64,000 nt of DNA from Eledone cirrhosa (Eukaryota): the NCBI GenBank assembly GCA_964016885.1, contig OZ024752.1:29202001-29266000 (forward strand), given 5' to 3'. Positions 21,586 through 63,518 of this stretch are shown piece by piece. Numbering within the stretch: the first letter of the stretch is position 1; each line of letters begins with the position of its first letter. A model generated the notes under the pieces. It was not told the DNA's origin, made no database searches, and saw only the letters and a program-made list of their open reading frames with translations. The position numbers were made by a program, and so were the translations under genes.

Positions 21586-21641
21586 ACCAGAACAACCTGC
21601 CACCCTCTACACACCATCATAAACTGCAAGCAGGGTACAAA

Positions 21642-40208: not shown

Positions 40209-40532
40209 GTTTGTAGCTTTGTTTCTTATTTTCTTATTTATTAGCTGCTAGTTGTGTGCTCCACAAATCCGAGGGAGTGTTACCGCCTAGATCTTTGCTC
40301 CTGGTAGGGCCACCCTAGGCAGGCTGGTCTCTGAGGAGGTTCCAGACTGGCCAAAGACGTCTGTATTCTGCTGACATGCAGTCATTATCAAGTGCAGAGG
40401 AGGAGTTATTATGTCTTTTGACACACACTGAAGGATCTTCCTAACCTCGCTTTGGTAAGCTTTCTACGGCTGTATGCCCTTCCTAACACCAACCACTTTA
40501 CAGCATGTACTGGGTGTTTTTATTGTGTAGAT

Positions 40533-40870
40533 CAGGGGTTCTCAACCTTTTTTTCACTGTGGACCACCAAAATAAGTAATTTTTTCCTGTGGACCACCTA
40601 AACTTTTAAATCTTTTGTAATAGAACTGCTACTTATAAGCATCAGTAGATATTTTTTTTCAATGAATTAGAAGATGCTATTATCACGTCGCAGTGCCTAA
40701 AAATCTACGCAAATAAACAGCTGAAGTCGTACTTATGTGAAAAATAAGAACAGCGCTTTAAGTCAAATGCATGGATCAAAAAAGAATTTGCTATTGAAAA
40801 TTTTCTGTGGACCACCTGAATTTTCCTGTGGACCACTAGTGGTCCACATGGACCAGGTTGAGAACCCCTG
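40533..40870. mobile_element. hAT (Charlie-type) MITE with 8-bp TSD
   Basis: TIR CAGGGGTTCTCAACCT / AGGTTGAGAACCCCTG; TSD GTGTAGAT at 40525-40532 and 40871-40878; repeated subterminal GTGGACCAC. Confidence 0.9.
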
Positions 40871-41202
40871 GTGTAGATTACCAACACTAGGGAGGGTGTT
40901 GTGTTCTTAACATAACTAGAGGATCCTCCCAACCCTTTGTTTGGCAAGCTTTCTATGGCTGGATGCCCTTCCTAACACCAACCAATTTACAACATGTACT
41001 CTGTGTTTTTATTGTGTAGATCACCAGCACAAGGGAGGCTGTCATGTCTTTAAATGAGTTCCTGGAAGTCTATTGTTACTTTATTGTAGAAATTGGATCA
41101 AATCTTTAAAACATAATAGATATGAGAAGATTACTACTGATGTAAATAGTCAAACATAGTTTTCACACAATCATTAATATTTCTTTTTTCCTTTGTCAAC
41201 AG

Positions 41203-41373
41203 TTTATGACAGTTGTCATTGATCCAGGAATAGTTAACCAGCCTGGTGTTGGAACAGCTATTTTCAATGCATGTGAAGATCTTGGAGTTACTTATAAAAT
41301 TGAATCTCAAAATATGCCTTATATTGTAACTTGGAAACGGACAACCGTGTGTTATGATACTGAAAACCAAGAG
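41203..41373 (+). CDS. EME1: EME1 exon (start of nuclease-like domain)
   Basis: caacAG|FMTVVIDPGIVNQPGVGTAIFNACEDLGVTYKIESQNMPYIVTWKR...ENQE|GT; cf. EME1 IVVLDP...AVPCSVTWRR. Confidence 0.9.
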
Positions 41374-41689
41374 GTAATATATTTATGTCTGTATCTGGAA
41401 TATATGAGGAGAATCTGTTATCTAGATATTCAGATAAAACAATACAGTACTTAATAAACAAAAATGAAATAATTTTCTATACGGGGGTGTTGTAGTTTGC
41501 TTGAAGCATTGCTTAAAGTGTAGAAAATATATTTACTTGTCATATATATAAATATGTTTATTGTCATATATATACATATATTTGCAGTCATATATAAATT
41601 TAATTACTGTCATATATATATATATATATTTACTATGTTAGCATAGAAGATGGACGTTAAACGAAGATGAAGATGATGATGATTACTAT

Positions 41690-41880
41690 CACATATATAA
41701 ATATATTTACTATCACATATATAAATATATTTACTGTCACATATATAAATATATTTACTGTCACATATATAAATATGTTTACTGTCGCATATATAAATAT
41801 ATTTACTATCATAAATACAAGTATATTTACTGTCATAAATACAAGTATATTTACTGTCATAAATACAAGTATATTTACTT
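41690..41880. repeat. 24-bp AT-rich minisatellite
   Basis: Unit ATATATTTACTGTCACATATATAA, ~8 copies. Confidence 0.8.
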
Positions 41881-42552
41881 TCATTGTGTAAGTATATTTA
41901 CTTGTCATATATAGATCCATTCAAGCCATGAAATAAGAGATAAAACCTTTAGGGTGCTCCCTAATAATCAGTCAGAAACCTCTGTTACATGCCTATTTGA
42001 ACAGAACTAACTGAAGCCAAACAAAAGTGGCACCGATAAGCCCCATCGTTTCTTTTTTTGTTGTGAAATTGATCTAGTTTTTATTAACTATTTTTATTTT
42101 CAATATTAATATTAGAAAAAAGGTGGAGGATTGGTAGAATTGTTAGAGTATTGAACAAAATGCTTTGCTGTATTTAGTTACAGCCCTTTATGTTCTGAGT
42201 TCAAATCTCAACAAGGTCAACTTTGCCTTTCATCCTTCCAGGGTTAATAAAATAATGTACCAGTGAAGTACTGGTGTTTGATTTAATCAACTTTCTCCTT
42301 TCCCTCGTAATTTGTTGACCCTGCATATAAATTGGAAATCCATATTGGATAAAATGATTACTGCATTTAGTTACAGCCCTTTCGGGGGTCAATAAAATAA
42401 TGTACCAGTGAAGTGAAGTACTGGTGTTTGATTTAATCAACTTTCCCCTTTCCCTAAAATGTGCTAGACCTGCACCTAAATTAGAAATCCCTATTAATGT
42501 TAGAAAGAAAGTTTTCTCACATATAATAAAATCAGTTCATTTTAAACTTCAG

Positions 42553-42645
42553 GTAAAGACCTGGAATTTGGACATTGCTGAAAATGACATCATGATATTG
42601 ATGCCACTAGATGCCTTTACTGAAATACTGGATGATTTGAAACTG
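42553..42645 (+). CDS. EME1: EME1 exon
   Basis: ttcAG|VKTWNLDIAENDIMILMPLDAFTEILDDLKL|GT, phase 0/0. Confidence 0.8.
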
Positions 42646-43358
42646 GTATAAAACATTTTTGTTTTATTCCCTTTTTATCTATTGTAAAATTCTGTAAAAT
42701 GATCACCTTAACCGTTTTGTTACCAACCTAACCCAACCCAACTGGCCTATTAATTGGGTTCTAAACTATCATGTTGAATTCATCATCATCACCATTTAAC
42801 ATTGATATTTCAACATGAAATTTTAGAACTATTACCCTTTTTTCAAATGTGGGGCTGAAACAGTTCAAAATTAGATGAATGATCGATGTGTTTTTCCTTA
42901 ACTGGCCTATTAACTGGGTAATAGCCCTAAAATATGTTGAAATACACTGGGTAAAACATTACTTTGTTTTGTTTTATTTCTCATCATTTGCCCTTTGTAT
43001 TTTTCTACCATGTTGTACTAGGCTTTTTAAAAATGATTGGTCTTTTATTACTTCTATATTTATATGTAAGATTTCTGGAGTAAACCCCAATAGTTTATGA
43101 TGAGTAATTATATATAAATAGATTAAAATAGAAAAAGACAAAGCAATGTGAATGTTTTGGGGTTTCTTTTGAAAATGTAGCTTATTTTTCTTATTATTCA
43201 AAACATTCTCGAATATTGATTTTTTTACTGTCAGAGATGTACCAAATATTTTCTCCATATGTTTTCCTATTTTACATTCCATTCTTCTCAATCTAAATTT
43301 TCTTTTTCTATTAAACTGTATTTATTTGTATTTTCTTATATTTTTTTATTCAAAACAG

Positions 43359-43474
43359 AACAGTATGAGTAAGGATTGTGTCTCATCATTAAACCAATAT
43401 GCTGAGAATGTTCAGTCACTGTACCCAGGTTGCCCTGTAACATTAGTAGTTATTGGGTCAAGTATTGGAAACCA
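43359..43474 (+). CDS. EME1: EME1 exon
   Basis: aacAG|NSMSKDCVSSLNQYAENVQSLYPGCPVTLVVIGSSIGN-CA|GTAAGT. Confidence 0.82.
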
Positions 43475-44681
43475 GTAAGTAGATAAATATAGTAGTTTGA
43501 ACATCTAATGTTTACTATGGTTCCGTAACTCCTGTTGGAGTCGTCGGGGTGCCATAGTGACACAGCGTTTCTTGGGCATCTTCAGCCTGACAGAGCCCAT
43601 CCCTCTCCAGGCCTGAGTACAGCAGATTTCTTTCAGAGAAGGTAGAGAATAACTAAAAGGAAGTGAGAAAGAGATATGGAGGAAGAATTGACCCCAGTAG
43701 TAGACTGGTACTTTTTTTATCGACCTCGAAAAGATTAATATATTTGATGTACAATAAAGTGTGCTATTGTAACGTGTTATTTAGCCCTAGGTCAATACTG
43801 ATAGAGCAGACATATGATCAAAGGTATTATAGCTGTGACCACCTCATCTTTATATGTCAACATCATTGTTTAATGTCCACTTTCCCTGCTAGCAAGAGTT
43901 GACAGGTCTACATAGACCAAGCCAGTACTGAAGTGGTGGCTACTTATCTCTCAGACAAGTCAGGGATCTGTTGTCTCGCTTATGTATGATCTCGCATATT
44001 ACCAAGTGCACAGGAGAAGTTGTCATATCTTTGACACAACTGACAATCCTCTCAACCCTTTGTTTGGCAAACTTTCTATGGCTGGATGCCCTTCCTATCA
44101 CCAACCACTTTATAGCATATACTGGGTGTGTCTATCGTGTAGATCACCAACACTAGGGAGGCTCTCATATCCTTGACACGACTGAGGGATCCTCCCAGCT
44201 CTCTGTTTGGAAAGCTTTCTATGGTTGAATGCATTTCCTGTCACCAACCACTTTACAGTGTATCGACAACATTTAAGGAACCTCCCTGGCTACTTCATGT
44301 GTGTTCTTAGTGCTTACTTCTTCTGTGCATCTGCCACATACAAAGTTTATTTTTTCTGTTAATCTGCCTGCAATCCCACTTACATCTCTTGTGTGTCCAT
44401 AGATTACACCATGTGCACCTTATAGAATATCTGCCCACCCCATGGGTGGAGGAAGACTGGTGGTTGTCTGCTATTGTTGTATGATAAGTGAAGGATGGTT
44501 AAAGCAAAGCTAAGAAAATGAGGATTGAATAAGGAGCAGATTCCATGTCAAAGTAATATGGATAGCATTGACAAGGTAGACCTGATTAACACATAGCAAT
44601 GTAGTAAAAATATTTTAAAAATTAGCTTTCATGGATATTTATTGCAAATTTAACTAAATTCCTTATTTTTTTTATCACCAG

Positions 44682-44745
44682 AGCCAATAAAAAATCTCAG
44701 AAAATGGCAAAAAAGGGAATTGATGATCGTCTTTCTATAGAAGAG
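44682..44745 (+). CDS. EME1: EME1 exon
   Basis: accAG|A-ANKKSQKMAKKGIDDRLSIEE|GT; phase 2 in, phase 0 out. Confidence 0.8.
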
Positions 44746-44856
44746 GTTTGTGGCTAAGTTTGTTTTTTATTTCTACTAGGATTTTTTTCAACATGCTTAC
44801 ATGTATGTGTGTGTATGTACATATGCATACATTTGTATGTATGAGTATATAATATA

Positions 44857-47619
44857 AACACAAACTTTAAAAAAACCCGACAACCACCTGATCACCTATA
44901 GATCAGGGGAGCACTCTAGTCAGATAGATTTTATCCTCATCAGAGGACGTGACAGATGGACGGTCGTAAACACAAAAGCCTTCCCTAGTGAGGAATGTAC
45001 ATCCCAACATAGCTTAGTTGTCAGCGACCTCACAGTCAGAACTAGACGAACCTGGAAACAGAGGCCAACCTGGAGAAGAAAGATCTGGAAGCTGAAAGAC
45101 CCCTCAACCAGTAACAGATTTAAAGATATTCTACTCAATGCCTACGATAGTAAAGAAGAACAGATAGAGACATTCAATGTAGAAGAGAACTGGGAGTTCC
45201 TAAAAAATAACTTACTAGAGGCGACAGATGAGGTCTGTGGCTGGAGTAAGACCTCAAGCAGGAGGAGAGTGACTTAGTGGTGGAACAATAAGGTAGATGA
45301 GGCAGTTAAGGCCAAAAGACAGGCATGGAAAGAATGGAAGAACGGGGGGAGCAGGGTACATTACATAGAGACCAAGAAGGAAGCTAGGTGACAAGTATAC
45401 TTAGTGAGGAGGGAAGCAGAGGATAGAAAATTCAAGCATGTTTTGCAACGTGAGGACCAGAAACAGGAGGTGTTTAAGATTGCGAGGCAGTGTGTCAGAG
45501 AGAATTGTGATGTCATTGGAGAGAAGTGTATCCAGAATGATAAAGGTGAGCTTGCCCTCACAAGTGCTGAGAAGAAAGATGCATGGAAGAGTCATTATGA
45601 TAGATTACTAAATGAGGAGAATGCATGGGAAGAAGAGACCCTACCCAAAGTAAACTCTATAGAGGGGCCAGCAGTACAAGTCAGCAGCAACGTAGTAAGT
45701 AAGGCAATCAAAGATATGAAGATGGGGAAGGCAACCGGTCCATCGGGTATAGCTGCCGAGATGCTGAAGGCATCTGGGTCTGAAGGTCACACTATAACCA
45801 CACGTATTGTTAACCAGGTAATACTAGAAGGTGTCATACCAAAAGATTGGTGCAGTAGCATCATTGTCAACTGCTACAAAGGTAAAGGTGATGCACTAGA
45901 TAGAGGAAACTATAGAGGTATAAAGCTGATGGACCAGGTCATGAAAGTAACAGAAAGTTATAGCACAGTTCATTAGGGACCGGGTGAAACTAGACGAGAT
46001 GCAATTTGGGTTTGTACCATGAAGAGGCACCACTGATGCCCTCTTCCTTGTCACGCAGTTACAGGAAAAGTACCTAGCTAAAAGTAAGCCACTCTATCTG
46101 GCATTTGTCGACCTTGAGAAAGCCTTTGACAGAGTTCCACGTGCTGTAATCTGGTGGGCTCTTAGAAAACTAGGAGTAGATGAATGGCTTGTGAAAGCGG
46201 TACAAGCCATGTATAGGGGAGCAGTCAGCAAAGTTAGGATTAGCAATGAGTATAGCGAGGAATTTAGCGTACAGGTTGGGGTCCACCAGGGCTCTGTTCT
46301 TAGCCCCCTCCTGTTCATCATAGTCCTGCAGGCAATAACGGAGGAGTTTAAGACCGGATGCCCATGGGAACTCCTGTATGCTGATGACCTCGCACTTATA
46401 GCTGAATCTATGGTAGAACTAGAGAAGAAATTCCAAACTTGGAAGCAGGGACTAGAAAGAAAGGGTCTCAAAGTCAACATGACAAAGACTAAGGTCCTTG
46501 TAAGTAGACGAGAAAACAGAACCCAGATCCCCTCAGGGAAATGGCTTTGCTCAGTATGTAGGAAAGGTGTAGATAGGAACTCCATTCTCTGCCCCAAATG
46601 CAAACAATGGGTACACAAGAGATGTAGCGGGATCTTAGGAAGCTTAATTAAGAATGTAGGCTTCACATGCAGCAGCTGTGCTGGGACAGCAAGCAGCAAA
46701 CAGCCACAGGAAACAAGTACCACCAATCTCTGGGAGGGCTCTGTAGAAACAGTAGACAGCTTCTGCTACCTAGGTGACCGAATTAGCAGTGGAGGTGGGT
46801 GTTCAGAAAGTACAATAACTAGGGTAAGAACGGGATGGAAGAAGTTTAGGGAACTACTACCCCTGCTAGCTGCAAAAGGCTTCTCCCTCAAAATGAAAGC
46901 CAGACTGTATGATGCGTGTATCCGGACAGCGATGTTGCATGGTAGTGAGGCCTGGGCGCTGAAGGTGGAAGACTTACGTAGATTAGAGAGAAACGAAGCC
47001 TGCATGCTCCGATGGATGTGTAATAGTAATATACGCGAACGACAAAGCATAAATGAATTGAGAGAGAGACTGAGCATAAGAGGAATCAAATGCTGTGTGC
47101 AGGAAAGGCGGTTGTGTTGGTATGGACATGTGATGCGTATGAAGGATGACAGCTGCATAAAAAGGTGCAGAACACTAGAAGTCAATGGAAACCGCGGAGT
47201 GGGGATACCCAAGATGACCTGGGATGAGGTGATAAAAGCCGACCTTACCCAATTACACCTCTCAAAGGCGATGACACACGACCGTGACCTCTGGTGGCAC
47301 GCAGTAATACAGAGTACCCGACCTCCCATGGGTACAAGCTGAAGCATATAGACAATATGCCCCCACAGCCCCCACCGCAAGGTGGTCGTGGAGGTGCCAC
47401 GGCAAAAAAGCACCCAGCCCACACTGTAAAGTGGACGTGTAGGCCCAGCACTCACTGTAAATGAGGTTGGTGTTAGGAAGGGCATCCAGCTGTAGAAATC
47501 AAGCCAAATCAGTTCCTGTATGAGCAAGGCATGGTCAGCCGACCAGACATTGCCCACAACAGGACAACCCGTCTAACCCATGCTAGCGTGGAAGAACGGA
47601 CGTAAAACGGTGATGATGA
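44857..47619 (+). mobile_element. 5'-truncated decayed RTE LINE (APE C-terminus, RT, PHD, 3' UTR) in an EME1 intron
   Basis: ORF pieces 45404-45976 and 46191-47342 (HQGSVLSPLLF, LLYADD, C4HC3 finger), several stops, (TGA)n tail; related to the 4165-8424 element. Confidence 0.9.
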
Positions 47620-48146
47620 AACATGCAGACACAGACACACTGACAAAAATACACAGTTACAGACATACATTAACTCAAATACAGAATGGGACTGAACCAG
47701 AGACTATGTAGTTGTACAGTGACCTTCTTAATCACACAGCCATGCACCATGCTTACACCTGATGTCTTTTTACTCAATCACTATATTGTTGTATTTAGTA
47801 TTGTGCAGTACACAGCCATTATCACTATATTGTAATGTCTGTTTACATTTGTGATGTTTGAACCTTTTAGCATTTAAACCAGCTGTATCTGGCCAGAATT
47901 CTCTCACTTCTTTCTGTTCAAACCGGCCATAACTGGCTGCTCATACTGACATTAAGTTATTGTTCTCAAAATAAATAATATCCAAATCGCATAGATTCGA
48001 TATTATGTGAGATAAAGCCTTTACCACAAAATTACAATAGTATATATAGAGTAATGTAAATACTAAAGGGTTAAATTAGGATCAGACAAATATTCATGAA
48101 TACTTTCAATGGAATTTCTATTTTTTATGTTAATTTTCCATTTCAG

Positions 48147-48262
48147 GCATTTTTAACTCTGCAATTACGGAATCTATTTAATTGTCAACTTATACAGACA
48201 AGTGCTGGTATTACTACTCTCATTAGATCATTCACGAAAGCTGTAGGCGAGAAACCAGGAAA
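48147..48262 (+). CDS. EME1: EME1 exon
   Basis: tttcAG|AFLTLQLRNLFNCQLIQTSAGITTLIRSFTKAVGEKPG-AA|GT; cf. EME1 ALVDLQL...FTKAVAEAP. Confidence 0.9.
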
Positions 48263-49281
48263 GTACGATTATTTTCTACTTTAGTCAATTACATTATCAT
48301 TAAAGCATTGTGATAATTATATATATAGTATGGTATAGTCCCGTAGCTCTTGATGGAGTCGTAGGGGTGCCATATTGACATATGGAATTTCTAGGGCATT
48401 TTTAACCCTTCTAATGTTCAAACCGTCCAAAACCGGCCAGAATTCTCTACCTCTTTCTGCTGAAACTGGCTGTAACTGATCACTCAAACTGATGTTAAGG
48501 TATTGTTCTCATAATAAATACTTAGAAAATCTCATAGATTCGATATTATGTGCGATAATTATGTGAGGTAAAGCCTTCACCATGAAAATATAATAGTATA
48601 TTTAGAGTAATGTGAATACTAAAGGGTTAAACCTGACAGAGCCCATCCCCTTTCCAGGTCCCAATACAGCAGATTTCTTCCAGAGAAGGAAAGAGAGTAA
48701 GAGAATGGAAGTGAGAAAGAGATATAGAGGAAGAATCGACTCCAGATAAATTTTAGATAAATTTAAATAGGTGAATTAACCAGAACTTTAGTGTGCAATA
48801 ATTTAATGTTAATGATATTAATAAGGGTGCAGGATAGGCAGTATCGGTAGAGCATTGGACGCCATGCTTTGCAGCATAGAGTTATGGCCCTTTACATTCT
48901 GAGTTCAATCTCACCGAGGTTAACTTTGCCTTTCATCCTTACAGGGTTGATAAAATAAAGTACCAGTAACGCACTGGAGTAATTGCTGGCCTTGTGCCAA
49001 AAGTAGAAACAATTATTGATATAAATATGTTGGAATAGTAAAAAGTGAAAAACAAAACAAAAACACCTGAAGTTATTTGAACATTGTGGACAGTAGTGTG
49101 TGCATGTATGTGTGTTTGTATATGTATGTGTGTTTGTGCATGTATGTGTGTTTGCGTATGTGTTTGTTAGTGTGTATGTTCAATGAGTGTATATAGTATT
49201 GTTTCAGGCTATTTTATTGTCTTTCTAATCTATTTATTTTATCAGGGAGTGTCAATTTACTATGAGATACATCTACTGCTG

Positions 49282-49480
49282 TGGAGACATGTAGCCTAGT
49301 GGTAAGGGTGTTAGACTTACGATCATAATGTTGTGGGTTCGATTCCTGGACTGGATTGTGTGTTGTGTTCTTGAGCAAAACTCTTCATTTCATGTTGCTC
49401 CAGTACACTTATCTGAAAAACGAGTACCTGCAGTAGCTGAGGGTTAGACCCTACAATGGACGGTGTCCTGTCCAGGATGG
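49282..49480 (+). mobile_element. tRNA-derived SINE (family 2)
   Basis: GGAGACATGTAGCCTAGTGG...GGTTCGATTCC boxes followed by TGTTGTGTTCTTGAGCAA core, as in 8616-8927 and 36972-37240. Confidence 0.65.
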
Positions 49481-51103
49481 GAGAGGGGTTTCTTGTACAT
49501 CTGGGGAAAGTTAGATACCCACTTGACGATGACTTCTCCAGGCCAAAAGCTACAGTTATAAATAAGTTGACTGAAAGTATCAATAGAAGATGTCTAAATC
49601 TGTCTCAAGCCCAAAGGCTTATCAGGCCTAGTTTCAATGGCATTAAGTGACTGAAGGTATCTAAATTTCCTTGGATGTTTTGATTTTAAAGCACAATGTC
49701 TTCCAGTTAGTTGGTTGGCAGTGATGGCCAAGTCACTGCCCATCTTCTCCTGAACTCCTCTCACCTGCTCCAGAGCCAGCAAAGGCTCTTTCTGCTGCTT
49801 CCCTCAACCTGCCAGCAGCTATCTTTCTCTACTGTCCTTCTATTCCTAGAGCTGCAAGAATCATCTACACAGACTGGACCAAGAAACCTATGCAGCCAAC
49901 CTTAACTGGAAACAGCCAAGCCTCCCACTTTATTTTTATATTGTTGGATCAGGTTCTGTTGTTTGGTAGTCTTCCTCTCTGGGGCCTCCTCATGGGACCA
50001 TTAGTTCAATTAGAATTATCTTCATCTCCTTGGACCATATGACAATATATGACTGAAAGGATGTTTGGATAAGCTAGAGAAAGTGTAGTTTCCTTCCCAA
50101 ATAATCACTCATCTCCCATCATTTTTCTGTTTGCAGGAAAGAGTCTCTTTTTAATTAATTCTATAATAGCTTGCAATTAAACAGAACAAGCAACAGCCTA
50201 ATTTACAATGCCGTTATAACTCTTCCCTTCTAATGAGTATTTTATGAAATGAAGCAAATCAATTTCTGTAGATCAATCCCCTTTTGTTTGCCTTCTGACC
50301 CCTATCCTTTCTATCTGTGAATGAGCTGACAGGTGTGAGCTAGTGAGAGAATTTAAAAGGTATAATTAAATGTGTTTAACTGGTAATTATAGTTTGCTGC
50401 TATTGGAGTTGTCCTATAATTCATTAGTAAACAATGAAATGCTTACAATCTTTTTACAGGCAAATATTCAGTTTATTTAAGCCTTTCATTACTGAATTTC
50501 TAATGAAAGGCACTGTCTATGTCATTAACCATTTCATTACCATATTTCCACTGAAAGACACTGCTTATGTCATTAACCATTTCATTATTGTATTTCTACT
50601 GAAACACACTGCTTATGTCTTTTAATTAATTTTTTAAATAATCAGGAATTTGGAGGAATTTAATAAAACAATTAAGTTTTTCATTAGTAAGTTGATATTA
50701 AAAACATTACTTAGATTAGAGTGTATACTCATTATGTTGAATTATATAGGAGTTAATTATTAGAGGTCGTTTCCCAGTGCTCCTCACAATATTGTTATCT
50801 TTTGCTCTGGTAGCAATTCATTTGTCTACCCCTTTCGGCTGCCTTTTGTTGTATGTGGTCCTAGATGTGTGTATTACCTGCTTGTGTGTGTTTTTTTCTT
50901 TTCCCATTTTTTCATTTCATTCATTCATGTCCGCTTTTCCCTGTTTGCAAGGCTCTTTTTTAATTATTTTTAAGGTTATATATACAACTCTTCAGTAAAT
51001 AAAATTTTGTAATTAGATTTTTACAAAATACATCATTGATGTAAATATATTTAGATCAAAAGTTTTCTTTTCTAAACATATTTTTCTCAAACATCACTTT
51101 CAG

Positions 51104-51278
51104 GAAGGATCGTTTACAGTCTGAATTTTCCTTTCATAATGAGAAAGGAAATAACAGTTGTGATTCATCTGATACACAAATGATGTGGAAGTTACAACTC
51201 CAACAATTTAAGAATATTAGTTCTGATGTTGCAAATGCCATTGTTTATCAATATCCTACACCAAAATCTTTGTATGAG
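51104..51278 (+). CDS. EME1: EME1 exon (first HhH region)
   Basis: tttcAG|G-KDRLQSEFSF...MWKLQLQQFKNISSDVANAIVYQYPTPKSLYE|GT; cf. [26 protein letters not shown]. Confidence 0.92.
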
Positions 51279-52340
51279 GTTAGTATCAAACAGCTTTATT
51301 TGTCAATATCTATTGCTCCTAGTGTTCTATATTTCTATGTCTCAAACATAATACTGTATCTGGTATTTGATATATATTAAACTGTAAACGTGGTTGGTGT
51401 TAGGAAGAGCATCCAGCCGTAGAAAACCTGCCAGACAGTCCCATATGAGCGAGACGACCAATCTTGCCTCAAGTGGGGCAATTCCCGTCTAAACCCATGC
51501 TAGCATGGAAGATAGACGTTAAATGATGATGATGATGATGATGATGATTAAACATGGTGCCATAACAAATCTGAACAGCATTCGTCTTGTCTATTAGATA
51601 GTCTAATAATGCTGACAGTAGAGAGTTAGAGTTAAGTTTTATCATATCTGGTTTTAAACTTTAACTCTTTTGTCACCTTATTTCAAATGAAAGACACTGC
51701 ATATATGTTTCAATTAATTTAAAATAATTTAATCAAGTAACTAACTCTTTCATTAGTAAACTGACATTTAAAAGATGTCTTACCCCTATAGCATTTAAAC
51801 CGGCCATATCCAGCCAGAATTCTCTCGCCTCTTCCTATTCAAACCGGCTGTAACCGGCCACTCATACTTATGTTAAGGTATTGTTCTAAAAGTAAATAAT
51901 ATCAAAATCTCATAGCTTCAATGCCTTTACCGAGTAAATATAGAGTAATGTAAATGATAAAAGGTTAAATAAAATTATGATGGAAGTATATAATATCGAT
52001 ATAAACATTTTAAAATGAGCAGTTTTGTATCTTAGAACCAGGGGCAGTTTCAGGTGGTTTGGTATTACCAGGTTCAACTTAACCATGTCTTTCAGAGTCA
52101 GTAGAAAAAGCCCCCAAAACAAAAAAAAAAACAAACTAACATTGGGATTAAATAATTTTATTTTCTCTTTCCTTTACAATCCCTCCCCCCCAAAAAAAGA
52201 ACTTAAGAAAGCAGTCAGTTCCCAGATGAATTTTTAAGACTTATTTGTTAATTAGTATTTTTGTAATTTGTGTGTATTTTCCATTTATTTGCTGCTTTTC
52301 ATTTTGTATTCCCTATTTATAAAAACATTTTTTTTCTCAG

Positions 52341-52397
52341 ACGTACCAAAATTGCTCTTCAGAGAAAGAAGGTATTAAAATACTTGAAAATATTATG
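52341..52397 (+). CDS. EME1: EME1 exon
   Basis: ttctcAG|TYQNCSSEKEGIKILENIM|GT. Confidence 0.88.
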
Positions 52398-52689
52398 GTA
52401 AATATAAACCCAAATATTTCTTTTTTTTTTTTTAACTCTTTAACATTTAAACTGGTCGTATCTGGCCAGAATTCTCTCACTTCTTTCTGTTGTAATCAGT
52501 TGCTCATACTTATATTAAGGTATTGTTCCCAAAATAAATAATATCAAAATCTCATAGATTTGATATTATGTGAGATAATTATGAGAGATTCACACTTTAC
52601 TATGAAAATACAATAGTAACTATAGAGTAATGGAAATGCTAAAGGATTAAAGATTATTATTCAATTATTAAAATGTTGCCTTGTATTCA

Positions 52690-53020
52690 GAATTAGCTAG
52701 ACAGCACACAAACAAATGAATCTGTCTTGGAAGAGATTGGTGCCAATCAACAGTCAGTTGGTTGAAACAGTAAGGACGAAGAAACTTCAGTATTTTGGTC
52801 ATGTCATTAGGGTTCAAAATTTGACTACCAATATCCTTAAAGGATGAATACAAGAGAAAAGGGCCAGGGGATGGCAGGAAAGGAGATGGACAGATGATAT
52901 TAAGGAATGGACAAGAAGAAGTTTGGTGGAATGTACAGCAATGGCAAGAGACAGGAATATATGGAAAACGCTGGACCATTATTCCCGACCCTCAGTTATG
53001 AGGATAGGATGAGGCTAGGC
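52690..53020 (+). mobile_element. Decayed RTE/BovB-like LINE 3' fragment
   Basis: KLQYFGHVIR...RRWTDDIKEWT...ARDRNIW in broken frames. Confidence 0.6.
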
Positions 53021-53606
53021 TAGGCCTTGTATTTAACTAATTTGAATTAATGTAGATGAGTACCTTCAGAAATACATAAATAACTGCAGGAGATCTTTAC
53101 ATTTAACACACCAGTTATTTCTTAAGTTGCAGTATAATCTATATATTAGAATATAATATATTTGGTTATATAGGGTGTAGTATGACATATTGGGAGTATG
53201 TTATATTAATTTTTTATTAGGTAACTTTTATCTTTGTTTCACTATTTTACTGGTTATTGCAACAGATGAAAGGTGGACCCAATTACAAGATAGCTTTGAT
53301 TCTTTGATGGTCTGTGTTCTTGGTAAAAAGAAAGGGTATTAATTTGTATGACACAATGCAGTAACTCACCATCTGCTTATTCTTTCATGATCAATGATCA
53401 AATTGGTGATCAGCCCTATTAATACTGATAATGAAGAAATGAGATTTGTCACATTCATGTCTTTTCCAATGGCCCTTCCTGCAATCATCATTTTACATCC
53501 ACTTTTTATGCTGACATGAGTTGGATGTGTTTTTATTCAGTTACTACACTCCTAAATGGGTTTGAGGACCATGTCTCACATGTTTAATTTTTTTTGCATA
53601 GTTTCT

Positions 53607-54012
53607 AAAGCTGGTCCTTTCTAGTACCAACTATATCACAGCACTAGATGGGTCTCTTAAGCTGGTCCTTTCTAGTGCCAACCACTTCACAGAACCAGAC
53701 AGGTTTCTAAGGCTGGTCCTTTCTAGTACCAACTATATCACTGCACTAGATGGGTCTCTTAAGTTGGTCCTTTCTAGTACCAACCACTTCACAGAACCAG
53801 ACAGGTTTCTAAGGCTGGTCCTTTCTAGTACCAACCACTTCACAATATTAGACAGGTTTCTGAATAAGGCTGGTCCTTTCTAGTGCCAACCACTTCACAG
53901 CACTAGACAGGTTTCTAAAGGTGGTCCTTTCTAGTAGCAACCACTTTACAACACTATACAGGTTTCTAAAGGTGGTCTTTCTAGTGCCAACCACTTCACA
54001 GCACTAGACAGA
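53607..54012. repeat. ~51-bp minisatellite, 8 units, derived from the SINE/RTE-tail core
   Basis: Unit GCTGGTCCTTTCTAGTACCAACCACTTCACAG...; resembles GCTGGATGCCCTTCCTAACACCAACCACTTTACAG. Confidence 0.8.
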
Positions 54013-55060
54013 TTTTCACATCCTCAACAAGGCTAGAGAAATTGTCTTTTGTGCTGCAAGAATAGACTCCTCTTTACTCTGTTGAAAAAAGAGAGGATGA
54101 TGGGGGGGGGGGGGTGTAAAAGAAGAGAGATAGTGATAGTTACATGCTGGTTGTTAGTAAGGAGATTGAATAGGAAGCAGCATGATGAGGTAGCAATAGA
54201 GTGATAAGGCGGTGGGGAGCTGGAAGCGAGACAGGTGATGATGAGTGTGACAGATGTCAATGTAGTGTCATATGGAAGAAGATTGATTGATATCTAGCTG
54301 TAAAGAATGGTGATTGTAGAGGTGTTGAATATGGTCAGATATAATAGTCTTCATCATCATCATCATCACTGACTAATGTCTATTCCTCCCCCCACACACA
54401 CACTAGCATGAGTTAGATGGGTTGTCCTGTTGTGAGATCAGATGACCATGTTTTGCTCTTACAGAACAGTTTCTGGCTGATTTCTATGGCTGGATGCCCT
54501 TCCTAACACCAACTACATTTACAGTGTGTACAGGGTGCTTTTTATCGTGGCACCAAAACGACCGCTTTACAGTGTGGACTGGGTGCCTTTTACCGTGGCA
54601 CCAAAACAACAACTCTACAGTGTGGACTGGGCACTTTTTATCATGGCACCAAATCAACCACTTTACAGTGTTGACTGGGCACATTTTGTTGTGCCACTAA
54701 CATAACCACTCTACAGTGTGGACTGGGGGCATTTTCTCATGACACCAACACGACCAATCTATAGTGTGGATTGAGGGAATTTTCTCATGACGTCAACACG
54801 ACCACTCTACAGTGTGGACTGGTGGTCTGGGGGAATTTTCTCATGACACCAATACAACCACTCTATACTGTGGCCTGGTGCTTTTTGTCATGATACCAAC
54901 ATGGCCATTTTACAGTGTTGACTGTTGATAGAGATATATTGTATGCTGTAGAAGTAATGTTGAACTGTTAATAACACATATTAAATATATGTCTGTCTTC
55001 TTAATATAAATACATTGCACTTAACTTTTTTCTTCTAAGTTGTTCATTTTGATTTTTCAG

Positions 55061-55171
55061 GTAAGAAGGAATGCTGGTGTGTTGCAGTCAGCCAGACGAA
55101 TAGGGAAAGAAAGTGCACGGAGAATTTACCAGCTTATGACATCAAAAGACCCAAACTTGTTATTAAAATAA
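55061..55171 (+). CDS. EME1: EME1 last coding exon (second HhH)
   Basis: tttcAG|VRRNAGVLQSARRIGKESARRIYQLMTSKDPNLLLK*; cf. [23 protein letters not shown]. Confidence 0.93.
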   Translation, partial: VRRNAGVLQSARRIGKESARRIYQLMTSKDPNLLLK

Positions 55172-55385: not shown

Positions 55386-55701
55386 TTCGTTTAACGTCCA
55401 TCTTCCACGCAAGCATGGGTGAGACGGGAGTTGTTCCACTTGAGGCAAGGTAGGCGGGTGACCGTGTCTCGCTCATATAGGACTATCTGGCAGGTTTTCT
55501 ACGGCTGGATGCCCTTCCTAACACCAACCACATTTACATTGTGGAACTGGGAACTTTTTACCGTGTTACCTACACGACCATATTACAGCGTGGATTTAAA
55601 AAAAAATTTTTTATATGTATATATATATATATAAATGTGTGTGTGTTTATATATATATATAAATGTGTATATATATAAATATATATATATATATAAATGT
55701 G

Positions 55702-55733
<32 letters not shown>

Positions 55734-55734
55734 A

Positions 55735-55765
<31 letters not shown>

Positions 55766-55981
55766 CAAACACACACACACATATATATATATATATACAA
55801 ATTTATATATATATATATATACAAATTTATATATATATATATACACACATATATATATTTATATATATATATATATATATGTATTGAAATTTCCGTTGAA
55901 AACAGAAAAGGTCATAGAAGTGAAGAGTGCTCTATGTAAGTATCAGAGCAAAATTTAATGTATAAAAATCAATACAATATA

Positions 55982-56059
55982 ATTACCTCATTACCAGAGG
56001 TTTCCCGAATGAGGCGAATACGAAAGAAACGTCCTCATTCGTTCGTCAGACGAGGCAAT
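55982..56059 (-). ncRNA. Putative type I hammerhead ribozyme (left-arm copy)
   Basis: Exact reverse complement of 58509-58586. Confidence 0.65.
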
Positions 56060-56272
56060 ATAAAACATGGGTAAATACTTGGAAAGTCTCATCAAGAAAA
56101 GCAAAAAAAAACAAAAAAGATATAGACAAATGAATTAGAATATGAAATATATAATCTTTCAAGAAATATAGTTAGGTGTGTGTATATGTATGTATATACG
56201 CTCACAGATGTGCATATATGTGTATGCACATATGTATACGTATAGTGAAAAAGTGTGCGTAAATATATAATT

Positions 56273-56452
56273 GTTTCTACTTTAGGCACAAGGCCAGCAA
56301 TTACCCAGTGCATTACTGGTACTTTATTTTATCGACCCCGTAAGGATGAAAAGCAAAGTCAACCTCGGCGGGATTTGAACTCAGATTGTAAAGGGACGTA
56401 ACTATGCTGTAAAGCATGGCGTCCGACCCTCTACCGATACTGCCAATCCACC
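56273..56452 (-). mobile_element. tRNA-derived SINE (family 1) inserted in the left palindrome arm only
   Basis: TSD ATATAATT at 56265-56272 and 56453-56460; the empty site is visible in the right arm near 58290. Confidence 0.9.
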
Positions 56453-58508
56453 ATATAATTTAGGGCAAATGTATCTGTATGTCTGTAATCTACAGACAGA
56501 ATAGATACATCATAAGAATATGAAGGCACGCGCATAAACACACCTACACACACGCACACTTAGATGCGGAAGTAAAAGAGGTAAGGGAGTGTAATAATTC
56601 AAGGAAAGTATCAATCTCGATATATTTATAAAAATGGAACAATAATTTAGAAAGAAAAAATTAAAGAAAAGACAAACATACATACACACACACACATATC
56701 TCACAAAAGAAACGCAAAAATAAACATGCTTATATACACACGCACACTTACACATCCATACGTTCGATACGTACACACACACACACACACATACACATAC
56801 TTACACTCACGCATATTGACCTGTTTGCATGCACACGCATAAAAATGAGTAAGTAAAAAAAGGGGAAGAAGAAAAAAGGAACAAAACATAAAACCTAGAT
56901 GTAAAAAACACGGATATAAAGACATACACATACGCATACATAAAAAATAATAAAAATAAAGATAAAAAAATATATCTGGAGTGGAAAACGCAAATGACAT
57001 GTATAATCAGTTAGTGAAGGAAATAGGGAAGTAAAAAATGGAAAGTGAAGATATTAGGTAAGTGAATCGGAGAATAAAAGGGGGGGGGGGTTATTGGTGG
57101 ATGTGAAGTAAAAAAAAAAATAATAAAATAAAAAAAATAATAAAAATAATAATATATAAATAAAAATAAATGAAATTAATGATAAGGATAAAAATGAAAG
57201 TAAATCAGAAAGGGTAATTATAAAGAGAATAATAAGAGTTTATGGAGGATAAGTATCTGAAAGTGTGTTCAGTTTATATGAGCTCATATAAACTGAACAC
57301 ATTTTCAGATACTTATCCTCCATAAACTCTTATTATTCTCTTTATAATTACCCTTTCTGATTTACTTTCATTTTTATCCTTATCATTAATTTCATTTATT
57401 TTAATTTTAATTTTTATTTATATATTATTATTTTATTTTTTTTCTTTTATTATTATTACTTTTTTTAATTTTTACTTCACATCCACCAATAACCCCCCCC
57501 CCCCCTTTATTCTCCGATTCACTTACCTAATATCTTCACTTTCCATTTTTTACTTCCCTATTTCCTTCACTAACTGATTATACATGTCATTTGCGTTTTC
57601 CACTCCAGATATATTTTTTTATCTTTATTTTTATTATTTTTTATTTTTGCGCAGCCAATCTTACAATTTTATAATTTTATATTTGTACTTACATATACAC
57701 AAGTTTTTTTACACACTGTATCAATGTGGCTGAACGCCTTAATGTGTGTATACTTTCTATATATGTACATGAGCGACTATGTATGTGCGCGCGCGTGCGT
57801 GTATATATATATATATGCGTATGTGTATGTGTCTCTATATCCGTGTTTTTTACATCTAGGTTTTATGTTTTGTTCCTTTTTTCTTCTCCCCCTTTTTTTA
57901 CCTACTCATTTTTATGCGTGTGCATGCAAACAGGTCAATATGCGTGAGTGTAAGTATGTGTGTGTGTGTGTGTGTGTACGTATCGAACGTATGGATGTGT
58001 AAGTGTGCGTGTGTATATAAGCATGTTTATTTTTGCGTTTCTTTTGTGAGATATACGTGTGTGTGTATGTATGTTTGTCTTCTTTTCTTTAATTTTTTCT
58101 TTCTAAATTATTGTTCCATTTTTATAAATATATCGAGATTGATACTTTCCTTTAATTATTACACTCCCTTACCTCTTTTACTTCCGCATCTAAGTGTGCG
58201 TGTGTGTAGGTGTGTTTATGCGCGTGCCTTCATATTCTTATGATGTATCTATTCTGTCTGTAGATTACAGACATACAGATACATTTACCCTAAATTATAT
58301 ATTTACGCACACTTTTTCACTATACGTATACATATGTGCATACACATATATGCACATCTGTGAGCGTATATACATACATATACACACATCTAACTATATT
58401 TCTTGAAAGATTATTATATATTTCATATTCTAATTCATTTGTCTATATCTTTTTTGTTTTTTTTTGCTTTTCTTGATGAGACTTTCCAAGTATTTACCCA
58501 TGTTTTAT

Positions 58509-58586
58509 ATTGCCTCGTCTGACGAACGAATGAGGACGTTTCTTTCGTATTCGCCTCATTCGGGAAACCTCTGGTAATGAGGTAAT
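58509..58586 (+). ncRNA. Putative type I hammerhead ribozyme
   Basis: Stem I ATTGCCTCGT/ATGAGGTAAT (10 bp, 2 GU); core CUGACGA; stem II CGAATGAGG/CCTCATTCG; GAAA; short stem III CC-UCU-GG; GUA cleavage triplet ending at 58576; A.G mismatch at the base of stem II. Confidence 0.68.
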
Positions 58587-58610
58587 TATATTGTATTGAT
58601 TTTTATACAT

Positions 58611-58663
<53 letters not shown>

Positions 58664-60308
58664 ATTTGTATATATATTTATATACGATATTAATAAATGG
58701 AAACTATATTTATAAGACCATATTTATTTCATTATACATATTTCAAGGATACCATGTTAAATTATGGCATGCCTTCATCATATAAAATACAATATATACC
58801 AGTTTTATAAATAAACATTGACGTACCCTTTCAAAATGCGACCGTTACTTTTGGAAGACATCAGGATAGTGGTTTGTTTATTTTAGTAAGTCGTTGTGTT
58901 AAGGAGAAGGAAAAAGACGGGGAGAGATAAATAAAGAAAAAGAAGAAAGAAAAAAGAAAACAGAGAAAAACAACAGAGATATCAAACCACCAGACAGAAA
59001 AAAATCAAGAGAGAGAAATATAGAGATAGAGAGAGGGGGAGAGAACGAAAACCTTAAGTCATGTCATATTAAGTTGAGTTAACAATTGAGATGAAATGAA
59101 TAAATAAAATTAGAAATATTAATATTCATGAATGGAATATACATATATAATATGAGAAATTAATCATTGTTTAGTTATGATTAGATATTTAGTTTAAAAA
59201 TTGAGATCAATATATAAAAAATTGGAATTTAAACTTTACGAAATATATATATTGCTAGAGAAATTACCTATCATATAGCACGTACATATACGCAAAAATA
59301 CATAAATATATATATATACACACACACTCAGAAAATACACACTATATCTACTTCCGCATATAATATATACATACAAAACATAAATGATTTTTTTTATTAT
59401 TACTGCTATATATTCCTTGTGTTATTAAATAAAATTTTTTTAGTATATATATATATAAATATATAGGATTAACTTTCATGCATTTATGGCTGTTAAATTA
59501 TGCATATCAGCAATCAAATTGCATGGGTACACATGTACATGTACACACACAATTCTTACATATACATATATAAACGTGTGTGTGCATCTTCACCCAATTG
59601 GTAAACATGCGTCACTCATGCATATATACAGACAGACATATATTCATAAAAATGCATACAACACATGCATATGTATGTTAATACACATACATACATACGT
59701 AGTCGTATAGAGATAAGTATACATCAATATATTACATAGTACAATTGAGTATATAAAATACAAAAGGATTATATATTGGAAATATAATTATATCAATATA
59801 ACCTAAAAACAAATGAATTCTACAAATGTCAAAATATTAAAATATTTTTAAATATTATAGAATATTTTAAGTTAATAGATTTAGTATAGAAATTTATCTT
59901 ACGTATATTTTATTCAAGAAATTGAAAGGACAAACTTTTGAAAATTATGAGAAGCTATCAGAATAAAAATAAACCTAATAAAAAAGTAAATAAAATATTA
60001 TATCAATATAACTTAAAAAACAAAAGAATTCTACAAATATCAAAATATTAAAATATTTTAAAATATTATAGAATATTTTAAGTTAAAATAATATGTTTAA
60101 TATATTTAGTATAGAAATTTATCTTATGTATATTTTACTCAAGATATTGAAAGGATAAACTTTTCTAGAATAGTTTATTATATTTATATTTATATTTAGG
60201 AAGAAAATTTATTTATACTTGAGTACTTAATGAAAATGAAAAAGGTGAAGGAATCTAATGATTTATCGACAGGTTTCATATATTAACCAAATTACTTAAT
60301 TTATTATA

Positions 60309-62480
60309 CTACATTTTAAATTTATATTCATATTTAAACATTGAGTTCAATCTATGTCTGCAGCAACTGAATAAATTATTCCTTAAATTAAGGGAATTTT
60401 TGGTCTTTAATATAAAGAATATTTCCTCTATACAAAGATCGCAATTTTCTGAAGAGGAATTAAAAGGAGTAGCTTTTGAAATAATATTCCAAATCAGCGA
60501 ATATTCAACATTATCTTGTTTTAGGTCCCATAATAGGCTAGATAGCGAAGTTGAAGATTTTTTGTTTGGATCTGTAAAAGAATTTTTATGATTATTGAAG
60601 CGGGATTTAAACTCTGTGGAGGTGGAACCGACATAATTAAATGAATTTAAATTCGTTTTAACATTACAATTATAAACTACATTTTTAGCTAAGCAGTTGT
60701 TATTTAACGGACATTTGGATTTATTTCTACAGTTACAATTATTCGATTGAATATTGCTTGGGTTATTATTGGTATTTTGGTTAGGTTTTAAATTTCTATT
60801 AATTCTATTAATATTTTGCGCTAAATTTTTGGTGGAAGAGTAAGTTAATTTTATAGTATGTCTATTAAAAATTGAGTAGTATCTATGTGTTCTAGGGAAG
60901 CGTTTGTCAAGAGCTTTAAAGAATAGTTTAGCAATAGGGGTTTTAATATTTAGTGAGAAAGGAGGAGCGAAACATAATATATTCCTAGTTTTTTCGGCTT
61001 TCAGAATTATTGTAATATTTTCTATTATAGTTGTTAAAATTGATACCATAATTAAAGTTGTTATTATTTTGGTTAGTTTTTATATTATTATTATTATCGA
61101 TGTATTTAATTTTATTTCTATACCCAGCTCTACCTAACGCTTCGTTGTAATACTGCGCTTTTTCATCAAATATATTCTTATTCGATGAAATTCTTGAAAT
61201 TCTTTCTTGTACAGAGTTCACTATAGTATTTTTAACGGATCTGGGGGTGATTAGAGTTAAAATTGACATAATTTAAGTTCTCATTTAGTTTGAAATGGAT
61301 AATGAAGACATGTGTTGAGATTTAGTGTTACATCTAGAAAATTGACTATTTTATGGCTATTCTCTATTTCTACTTTTAGATTAAGGTAATTAAAAAATTG
61401 TATAATTTGTTTTCTTTTTCTATTTAGTTCACAGCTATTATTTTCTATAAGTAAAAGCATGTCGTCACGATATAAGCCTCCGGTTACACCTGGTATTTTT
61501 CTATGTAGAGAATTAATTATAAATAGGCCCACAAGGTCCGTTACCTGAGCTGAGTCTGAAGATCCCATAGTTATGTCGAAATTATTATTTCTATCTGCCC
61601 TAGTCCAGAGTTGGTTATTAAATTCTATTAATGTTTTCCATGCCGATAATATAATGTGCATTTCATTGCTAGTTAGGTCTGTATGTTTAAATGCGTAAGT
61701 TAGTGCCTTATTCAGTAGATTAGGAGTGATAGATGAGTAGTAGTTAACAATATCCAACTGAATAAACTTATTATTATAGTTATATTTAATTTCTTTAAAC
61801 CAATCGATAACTTCACTAGTCCCTTTCCATAATTTTAAGTAAGATAAATTAGGTAAATTCTTAATTTGTTGTATTATTCTGTCTCGAATATTTTTGCTAA
61901 GTCTGCCCAGGTCAGATTTAGATAGTGCAATTAATCTGACTGGTAAATCATTTTCAAAGTTTCTTTTATGATCCTTCATATTAATCTTAGGTTTCCTTGG
62001 CATGAAGGGTTGTGCATTATACAAGAAGCATCTGTATTCAGTTTTTCAAGTTCGTCCTTATTTGCTACTTTGTATTTCTTCCTTAGTTCCTTCAATATAA
62101 GGTCGTTATAAATGTCCTTTTGTATTCCGTAAAGATTATTGGTTTTGTCTGACTTGACTAGAATTTTCTCCGTTTTCTCCAAGTTTTCAATATTATCCTT
62201 AATATCTCTTAAGTAATCTTGGCCTTTGAAGTTGTTTTTGAATTTGATGCTTTGGATGATAGATATGATATCATTTTCAAAATCCATTAGTAGTTTGTTG
62301 GGGGGGGGGGGGGGGGGGGGGAGTTTTTTTAGATTTGAAGATTTTATCCAGATTTGAAACATTTTCATTTAGATTAGATTTATCGAAGTGGAAAGCATGC
62401 CACCTGATTCTTCTTCTTAATATCGTATATTTACTCCAAATACTTGTCGAGTGCTTTAAATTTAAATAGAACTTTTGCAT
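60309..62480 (-). mobile_element. Decayed Penelope-like retroelement ORF (RT + GIY-YIG), probably Naiad-type
   Basis: RRIRWHAFHF, VKSDKT, DIVNYYSSI, MGSSDSAQV, LYRDD, VNFLDV (PLE RT); CNCRNKSKCPLNNNC, VVY...YVGST...FKSRFNNH, CDLCIEE, CRH (GIY-YIG); four frameshifts. Confidence 0.88.
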
Positions 62481-62614: not shown

Positions 62615-62729
62615 AAGTTGAAAAAAAATGAAAACGAAATTTCATTTCTCACTCTTAGTATGGCACTTACTTAAATGTAAGTATGTATGTATACGTACAT
62701 ACATATATGTATACAGACGTACAGTAGCA

Positions 62730-62770
<41 letters not shown>

Positions 62771-63338
62771 GCATACAGGTACACATACATATATGCACGC
62801 ATCAGTTTAGCCGACGTTTATTATAACGCAGCTTTGTTCGCTTGTTTGTCAACAAACCGAACAGCCTGAATTTATGCCATACGGTGTTAAGGCAACCACG
62901 TCACCTTTTTGTTCAACACTGACACAGGAACGATGTACTAGTTTCAAGCTTGTTAGCTATCATCAGCACCGTTTACCCATCTGCCAGATAGTTGAACGTT
63001 CGAAAGTATATACTTTCCTTATGAAAATTAACGGCTGAGCAGCCTAATTTGCATATTGAGTGAGTTAAATCGGTCAGGCATACCGAAAACGACAAGTTGA
63101 AAAAAAATGAAAACGAAATTTCATTTCTCACTCTTAGTATGGCACTTACTTAAATGTAAGTATGTATGTATACGTACATACATATATGTATACAGACGTA
63201 CAGTAGCAAACAAGCGAACAAACATACATACATACATATATGTATACAGACGTACAGTGACAAACAAGCGAACAAAGCTGCGTTATAATAAACGTCGGCT
63301 AAACTGATGCGTGCATATATGTATGTGTACCTGTATGC

Positions 63339-63397
<59 letters not shown>

Positions 63398-63434
63398 TGC
63401 TACTGTACGTCTGTATACATATATGTATGTACGT

Positions 63435-63441
<7 letters not shown>
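62615..63441. repeat. Compound direct + inverted duplication
   Basis: Direct repeat 62615-62729 = 63094-63208; inverted repeat 62686-62851 vs 63258-63441. Confidence 0.85.

Positions 63442-63518
<77 letters not shown>

Follow-up and report, generated by a model that had tools for sequence, protein, structure and literature searches.

The stretch of DNA analysed here (the window) comprises 64,000 nucleotides of the octopod Eledone cirrhosa (assembly GCA_964016885.1, contig OZ024752.1, positions 29,202,001 to 29,266,000 of the forward strand), and all positions below are counted from its first letter. In this window the gene EME1 is followed by a 2.66 kb palindrome with zero spacer, which lies between two (TA)n tracts and has a decayed Penelope-like element (PLE) of the Hydra type as its right-hand neighbour. 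We consider it very likely that the palindrome is itself a single Hydra-type PLE insertion, in which two 5'-truncated, non-coding 3' ends stand head-to-head inside (TA)n, each with a predicted hammerhead ribozyme. The features of the locus are as follows.

55061..55171, plus strand: last coding exon of EME1 with its stop codon (tblastn, O. bimaculoides EME1 residues 460-495, 89% identity)
55612..55884, no strand: (TA)n tract to the left of the palindrome, 136.5 copies according to Tandem Repeats Finder, presumed to be one half of the target
55885..55955, minus strand: one-sided 71-bp extension ("tail") of the left arm, absent at the right end
55956..57282, sense on the minus strand: left arm, non-coding 3' part of the element, 5'-truncated (arm alignment)
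55982..56059, minus strand: predicted type I hammerhead motif of the left arm (descriptor scan; C3 at 56049, predicted cleavage after 55992; stems I/II/III of 10/9/3 bp)
56265..56460, minus strand: short interspersed element (SINE, 56273-56452), presumably of tRNA type, with 8-bp direct repeats; left arm only
57264..57301, no strand: palindromic junction, perfect over 38 bp, centre 57282|57283
57283..58612, sense on the plus strand: right arm, same sequence as the left, ending directly in (TA)n (arm alignment)
about 57642..57809, plus strand: block of 168 bp, right arm only, a deletion or an insertion (arm alignment)
58509..58586, plus strand: predicted type I hammerhead motif of the right arm (descriptor scan; stems of 10/9/3 bp)
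58611..58684, no strand: (TA)n tract to the right of the palindrome (Tandem Repeats Finder), presumed to be the other half of the target; the neighbouring PLE also has its 3' end at this tract
58685..62478, minus strand: decayed Hydra-type PLE of a different family, outside the palindrome, with a broken reverse transcriptase (RT) and C-terminal GIY-YIG frame at 60309-62368

A preliminary description, made from the letters alone, had placed a zero-spacer palindrome beside EME1, and had noted a SINE specific to the left arm and about 170 bp specific to the right arm, at 57645-57815. The arm alignment reproduced the palindrome, with a left arm of 1327 bp and a right arm of 1330 bp. The symmetry at the centre was perfect over 19 bp per side, and was broken by a first mismatch at 20 bp, by indels from 115 bp and by two blocks of 168-188 bp. 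Over 1131 aligned columns the arms differed by 12 substitutions (1.06%), 10 of which were transitions (P = 0.0005 against an expectation of one-third), and short microsatellite indels also separated them. The right-arm block was present as described, and its coordinates were refined to 168 bp at about 57642-57809. It had no second copy within the window and no flanking duplication, and since the duplication was lacking, the block may represent a deletion from the left arm. The sense strand of the arms was T-rich and strand-biased (46% T, measured on the right arm). No coding remnant was found in the arms, either by tblastn of 120 PLE-like proteins (0 matches) or in the six-frame translation, so the arm element is truncated or non-autonomous.

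The SINE of the left arm was flanked by ATATAATT at 56265-56272 and 56453-56460, forming 8-bp direct repeats, and the right arm contained the empty site with ATATAATT present once, which bears out the left-only SINE with an 8-bp duplication of the preliminary description. We take it to be of tRNA type from its A/B-box-like motifs. Its nearest copy in the window differed at 4 of 174 columns, and these data are consistent with a SINE insertion later than the palindrome, of an age that fits the arm divergence. The idea that the SINE is older than the arms, which would have hinted at arm-to-arm conversion, was unsupported (4/174, P = 0.12 versus 1.06%). Six of the eight bases of ATATAATT match the 3' end of the SINE family itself, which was present in six of the seven other aligned window copies; this AATTAT end, overlapping the target duplication, suggests, as far as the sequence can tell, microhomology at the priming site. 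Copies of the family lie at 56273-56452, 1260-1426, 11013-11180, 19084-19265, 19793-19965, 25014-25126, 32830-32893 and 48832-49010, and the copy near 11 kb had a longer duplication, likewise starting with ATTAT.

Both strands of all 64 kb were scanned with a strict ribozyme descriptor, and 100 block shuffles served as the control. Three matches were obtained in the window, namely the two arm ends and a third at 62966, while 2 of the 100 shuffles gave one match at the loosest threshold and none did at stems of 7/4/2 or 9/9/3. The type I hammerhead motif at the end of each arm was identical in both arms, with its sense directed outward. In the right arm, stem I is formed by 58509-58518 with 58577-58586, CTGACGA occupies 58519-58525 and GAAA 58564-58567, and the cut is predicted after GTA at 58576. 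The distance from the predicted cut to the arm end was 36 nt in both arms, compared to 36 nt in the Hydra-1_Obim consensus, 46 nt in Hydra-1_Ajap and 31 nt in the neighbouring PLE. The layout of the motif is that of the Hydra type, with a short stem III and an unpaired base ahead of stem II, and its CTGACGA core was shared only with Hydra-2_Ajap among 26 Hydra ribozyme rows (25 families, counted by eye). The isolated 85-nt motif had the hammerhead as its minimum-energy fold. Both arm hammerheads are predicted self-cutting RNAs, from motif and folding models. Two motifs of the arm ribozymes were not found in the supplement of Craig et al. (2021), and a third matched only an unrelated coding stretch there; by this comparison, and allowing for line breaks, the family of the arm element appears not to be among the consensus sequences of that study.

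Insertion into (TA)n, as is usual for Hydra elements, was found on both sides of the palindrome (55612-55884 and 58611-58684). On the left, the 71-bp extension stands between the arm and the (TA)n tract, and a 7-bp hairpin is predicted in it, with arms inside 55928-55950. In the Craig 2021 supplement, which runs to 584,176 characters, the 15-mer CATAGAGCACTCTTC of the tail had one exact match against about 0.0004 expected, and this match lies at the 3' end of Hydra-2_Ajap. GCTCTG before and TGACCTT after CATAGAGCACTCTTC were, by eye, also common to the tail and Hydra-2_Ajap, and GCTCTG begins 42 nt past the predicted cut here and 38 nt past it in Hydra-2_Ajap. Moreover, the 10-mer TAGAGCACTC of the tail also occurs at the opening of the Hydra-1_Ajap consensus, and from this sequence likeness we read the 71-bp extension as a PLE tail, that is, the putative start of the next unit. 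By eye, Hydra-1_Ajap, Hydra-2_Ajap, Hydra-2_Amil and Hydra-1_Crog (Craig et al., 2021) each have an echo of the tail hairpin followed by ACT, at an end or a start, and this could possibly be an RNA signal conserved across four phyla. A second copy of the tail was considered at 29473-29514 (79% over 43 nt), which was also the top control window, and rejected, as it had no ribozyme, hairpin or (TA)n.

The neighbouring PLE adjoins the right (TA)n tract from the other side; it is flanked by (TA)n tracts and probably almost complete in length. DKT, RWK, a CxCX5C linker and CxxC/CxH without CCHH are features of the Hydra clade (PMC8557442), and the open reading frames (ORFs) of the neighbour contained DKT, RWH as a variant of RWK, CxCX5C, CxxC and CxH. 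Among 837 candidates, 494 relatives were obtained at E<=0.001. Pfam gave nothing for the two ORFs of the element, and one of three relatives matched RVT_1 below the cut-off. A damaged hammerhead was seen at about 58716-58780, 31 nt ahead of the (TA)n, by eye; it fails the strict scan. An assignment of the neighbour to the Naiads was rejected, since in these the endonuclease is N-terminal and a canonical ribozyme is missing. Its 3' untranslated region (UTR) is 1.6 kb long and of low complexity, with a tandem duplication of about 160 bp (59787-59939 / 59997-60164), which means that Hydra-type elements in this genome can have long, T-rich, microsatellite-laden 3' regions resembling the arms. Over its whole length, the arm scored 163 against this UTR, more than any of 60 shuffles or of 18 control stretches, the best of which reached 114, with both sequences being of low complexity. 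Homology of the arms to this UTR was nevertheless rejected, as the 3' ends do not align. The arms are therefore from another family than the neighbour or from a non-autonomous derivative, because they have neither demonstrable homology to it nor a coding remnant.

Two further inverted structures were observed in the window. A small non-coding element in (TA)n at 62615-63445 carries the third descriptor match, a minimal hammerhead on the minus strand (C3 at 62966, cleavage after 62936, stems 7/4/2). It has an identical direct repeat of 126 bp (approximately 62615-62740 / 63094-63219) and an inverted repeat whose two copies are nearly identical (62682-62851 / 63258-63445). Its appearance is that of a non-autonomous PLE of very recent origin, with pseudo-long terminal repeats (pLTRs) in both direct and inverted orientation. 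In the region 1929-2990, two inverted arms of 220 bp (1977-2196 / 2728-2948) are 99% identical and enclose a spacer of 531 bp. The right end of this pair runs into (TA)n and its left end has about 45 extra bases followed by a short TA run, which is the geometry of the main palindrome; a canonical hammerhead was looked for in this pair and not found.

The traits of a head-to-head PLE insertion were thus found together in the EME1 palindrome: ribozymes with outward sense, zero spacer, a type I hammerhead near each 3' end, a tail at one end only and a palindrome at the junction. A further support is the Hydra-type PLE in the same right (TA)n tract. The single ORF with RT and C-terminal GIY-YIG that defines an autonomous Hydra PLE was absent, and the palindrome was not filed as an autonomous Hydra element for want of an ORF. 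The preliminary description gave no origin for the palindrome, and had missed both the hammerheads and the tail on one side, as well as the (TA)n target and the PLE next door.

Several results weigh against the assignment to a Hydra-type PLE. With no remnant of an RT or an endonuclease, the clade is called from the non-coding ends alone, and the arms are single-copy within the window. The 200 nt at the 3' end of the arm had no homology to those of the neighbour (z = -0.5; 212 of 300 shuffles were as good), and the tail was not significantly similar to the 5' start of the neighbour at 62472 (its score was reached in 483 of 1594 control windows). The tail measures 71 bp, compared to the 30-40 bp published for PLE tails, and its match to Hydra-2_Ajap was spotted by eye first and tested afterwards. 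As for the ribozymes, stem II is flanked by A and G, a combination not seen in the Hydra ribozyme table. In a context of 300-600 nt, the pair probability was 0.2-0.6 for stem I and 0.08-0.17 for stem III, and the hammerhead was the minimum-energy fold in one of three contexts. The fold is thus moderately populated, in line with the weak monomer activity of PLE ribozymes reported in PMC4209133. Finally, Rfam returned no match in the whole window at the gathering threshold; at E<=10 over 55900-58700 it returned 37 matches, all sub-gathering and none of a hammerhead family, most of them microRNA models reacting to hairpins and microsatellites.

The architecture is already known from PLEs. In Craig et al. 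(2021, PMC8557442), an inverted 5'-truncated copy directly adjoins the element, the tail is often one-ended, and nearly all Hydra families are inserted in (TA)n; Penelope-13_HM has an inverted copy of 966 nt with a ribozyme on both strands. The palindrome resembles the Hydra-clade elements of that study in its sense type I hammerhead near the 3' end, its short stem III, an end 36-46 nt past the cut, the (TA)n target and the inverted 5'-truncated copy, and it shares the tail motif and the CTGACGA core with Hydra-2_Ajap. Unlike them, it has no ORF, a longer stem II (9-11 bp), a tail of 71 bp, and two copies that are truncated at the same base and so leave no spacer. Furthermore, the 3' UTR of Hydra-1_Obim is about 200 nt, whereas at least 1.2 kb of low-complexity sequence precede the ribozyme here.

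Similar structures have been described in other animals. The work on Adineta vaga (Arkhipova et al., 2013, PMC3846280) presents inverted Penelope pLTRs as head-to-head repeats with a junction palindrome and an optional tail on one repeat, and Pen1_Av has 0.9-1.5 kb of apparently captured DNA ahead of the 3' pLTR, which we count as a further likeness. However, in A. vaga the repeats are about 180-220 bp and the junction palindromes 18-38 bp, while all 2.66 kb are symmetric here; moreover, an ORF is usually enclosed there and target duplications of 8-10 bp are often visible, whereas (TA)n would hide any such duplication at our locus. The dual PLE hammerheads of Schistosoma mansoni (Cervera and de la Pena, 2014, PMC4209133) are also opposite-strand pairs and are ascribed to truncated PLEs, but they are minimal motifs without stem III, 100-700 bp apart, compared to about 2.5 kb here. 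Non-LTR retrozymes are non-coding, carry type I hammerheads and were proposed to be PLE derivatives, yet they form direct tandem arrays with at least two ribozymes on the same strand, according to bioRxiv 10.64898/2026.07.22.740005, as opposed to one per strand in the palindrome. A classification as a retrozyme was rejected for this reason and for the absence of a long-period tandem in the arms, and one as a Naiad because the full three-stem hammerhead, which Naiads lack, is present. The literature search, with most subscription papers outside its coverage, yielded no paper on such palindromes in octopus. The palindrome differs from the known cases in its arm length, full symmetry, longer tail and lack of an ORF.

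The origin of tandem and inverted PLE structures was termed unresolved by Craig et al. (PMC8557442), and two routes were compared for the palindrome. In the first, a PLE protein supplied in trans would nick both strands of the (TA)n and prime reverse transcription at each nick. The left arm would be copied from a distal start site, with the tail, and the right arm from a proximal site, without it. The two cDNAs would be the same in sequence, so that annealing would be possible only at a short self-complementary site of the template; the twin cDNAs would anneal at such a site, centred on GAGCTC, and fill-in would give a palindrome with zero spacer. Frangieh et al. (PMC11167929) showed in vitro that a PLE protein nicks AT-rich DNA on both strands, extends both, and uses two adjacent start sites that bound the tail. 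In the second route, the cDNA would fold back and prime itself at the junction site, and the endonuclease would trim one end; in Arkhipova et al. (2013, PMC3846280), head-to-head inverted repeats are abundant, junction palindromes are noted and self-priming is offered as the explanation. Within PLE integration we give a slight preference to two-strand priming, with fold-back self-priming placed close behind at somewhat under even chances. After the insertion, the SINE would have been gained, the 168-bp indel would have arisen and about 1% divergence would have accumulated, in that presumed order. The arm-specific history proposed in the preliminary description also has another possible reading: if there were two template RNAs, some of the differences could predate the insertion. 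The locus is probably inert now.

The gene upstream of the palindrome had been called EME1, with its stop at 55171, and this was upheld. Ten exon-like tblastn matches were distributed across 37923-55168, one exon was 84% identical to O. bimaculoides EME1 (one match among 8 candidates), and the stop codon TAA lies at 55169-55171, 785 bp ahead of the left arm. With exon 1 of EME1 as the query, none of 225 candidates matched, and a different exon, searched against the PDB, retrieved EME1 at no better than E=0.36. As the (TA)n target holds at least three PLE-like insertions, the position of the palindrome beside EME1 looks coincidental, as had been supposed. Other repeats were recorded in and around the gene. 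Minisatellite arrays with units of 48-51 bp occur at 53601-54015, 54510-54822 and 11862-12396, joined to a common short dispersed repeat, and an array is present inside the last EME1 intron. Two copies of a long interspersed element (LINE), presumably RTE-like, lie at 4673-7585 (minus strand) and 44858-47342 (plus strand, in an EME1 intron); they are about 75% alike and have endonuclease and RT frames. A second LINE family, which we take to be CR1-like, has three copies that are 89-93% alike, at 20362-24401 (plus strand), 8852-10339 and 30222-31966 (both minus strand); one is apparently near full length, and the family encodes an endonuclease and an RT, with a frame rich in Cys/His and Gln upstream of them. 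A short inverted pair of 87 bp with 91% identity and about 100 bp between its arms was found at 34455-34726.

Whatever its origin, the palindrome might have been kept as a source of double-stranded RNA (dsRNA) which arises by read-through from EME1 and regulates this gene through ADAR editing or small RNAs. Such dsRNA is physically possible in the modelled transcript: according to the arm alignment, 977 bp could pair in nine helices without interruption, each 52-200 bp long, and complementarity is complete over the outer 200 bp, in which both ribozymes lie. Editing of 3' UTR repeats is common in squid (PMC9068888), and by analogy editing of the arms would be plausible if read-through happens. 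Three poly(A) signals (55162, 55167 and 55208), however, flank the EME1 stop, chance could account for outer 220 columns that are free of substitutions (P = 0.075), and the arms have gained a SINE and indels, their 1% divergence being that of a young insertion with no sign of selection. We consider a retained function of this kind improbable, and any role in regulating EME1 is speculative. A read-through RNA of the plus strand would make the antisense ribozyme first. Pairing of the 78-nt motif with its complement was calculated at -152 kcal/mol versus -25 kcal/mol for the ribozyme fold, so the right-arm ribozyme would probably be buried in a long hairpin and silenced in any such RNA. Long palindromes are unstable, less so with a spacer and divergence (PMC3855049), and the breaks of symmetry may explain why this one has persisted.

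A single PLE copy could also have inserted first and been duplicated in inverted orientation later, by host repair or replication template switching. Fold-back repair yields zero-spacer palindromes; the right end falls in TA microhomology, and a DNA hairpin at the junction, with arms of 20 bp, is calculated to be stable at -15.9 kcal/mol. A later duplication of this kind would, however, have to stop the right arm exactly where Hydra consensuses end, 36 nt past the cut, with neither the tail nor the host flank copied. Moreover, the same geometry is routine in PLE integration, and the window holds two further inverted pairs with one (TA)n end. This origin seems to us improbable.

The palindrome exists in the assembly and, very probably, in the genome itself. 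Assemblers are reported to struggle with inverted PLE structures (PMC8557442), and a difference of about 1% together with the presence or absence of the SINE would also fit two alleles, so that a chimeric fold-back read or two haplotypes joined in inverted orientation had to be weighed. But the flanks differ between the two sides and the symmetry stops at the element boundary instead of the contig end, transitions predominate among the substitutions (10 of 12), and a chimeric read would yield neither a clean empty SINE site nor a one-sided tail. The earlier view that this is a real, aged structure is supported by arms that stop at the 3' end of the element and a tail on one arm only, and an artefact is very improbable. 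A foldback or miniature inverted-repeat (MITE-type) DNA transposon with two long terminal inverted repeats, inserted at TA, would account for the long inverted arms, the TA ends and the lack of coding sequence, but it leaves the outward hammerheads, the tail with its PLE motif and the strand-biased T-rich arms unexplained, and its termini should be symmetric whereas the unit is 71 bp longer on the left, which makes it the least credible origin.

Most likely, the palindrome is an octopod example of the known head-to-head insertion of PLEs, with Hydra-type ends, and reflects a known habit of these elements with no new system involved. What had been an unexplained "unstable palindrome" beside a cruciform nuclease gene becomes the footprint of a retroelement, and such palindromes in cephalopod assemblies should not by default be taken for artefacts or DNA transposons. 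An insertion that is fully symmetric and has one tailed end also offers a clean case in which to test two-strand priming against fold-back. For the hairpin of the tail, the words "hairpin", "stem-loop" and "GAGCAC" do not occur in the main text of PMC8557442, and the literature search found no description of it. In a bolder proposal, which we regard as unlikely but worth stating, GCTCTG...CATAGAGC with its hairpin and ACTC, kept between octopus and sea cucumber in non-coding RNA that does not align elsewhere, would be a Hydra cis signal for two RT start sites, and two-strand priming with joining of twin cDNAs at template palindromes would seed octopus (TA)n with zero-spacer kilobase palindromes that feed the cephalopod RNA-editing pool when they come to lie behind genes. 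As a concrete candidate, the tail hairpin common to two phyla could be an RNA signal read by the Hydra PLE protein.

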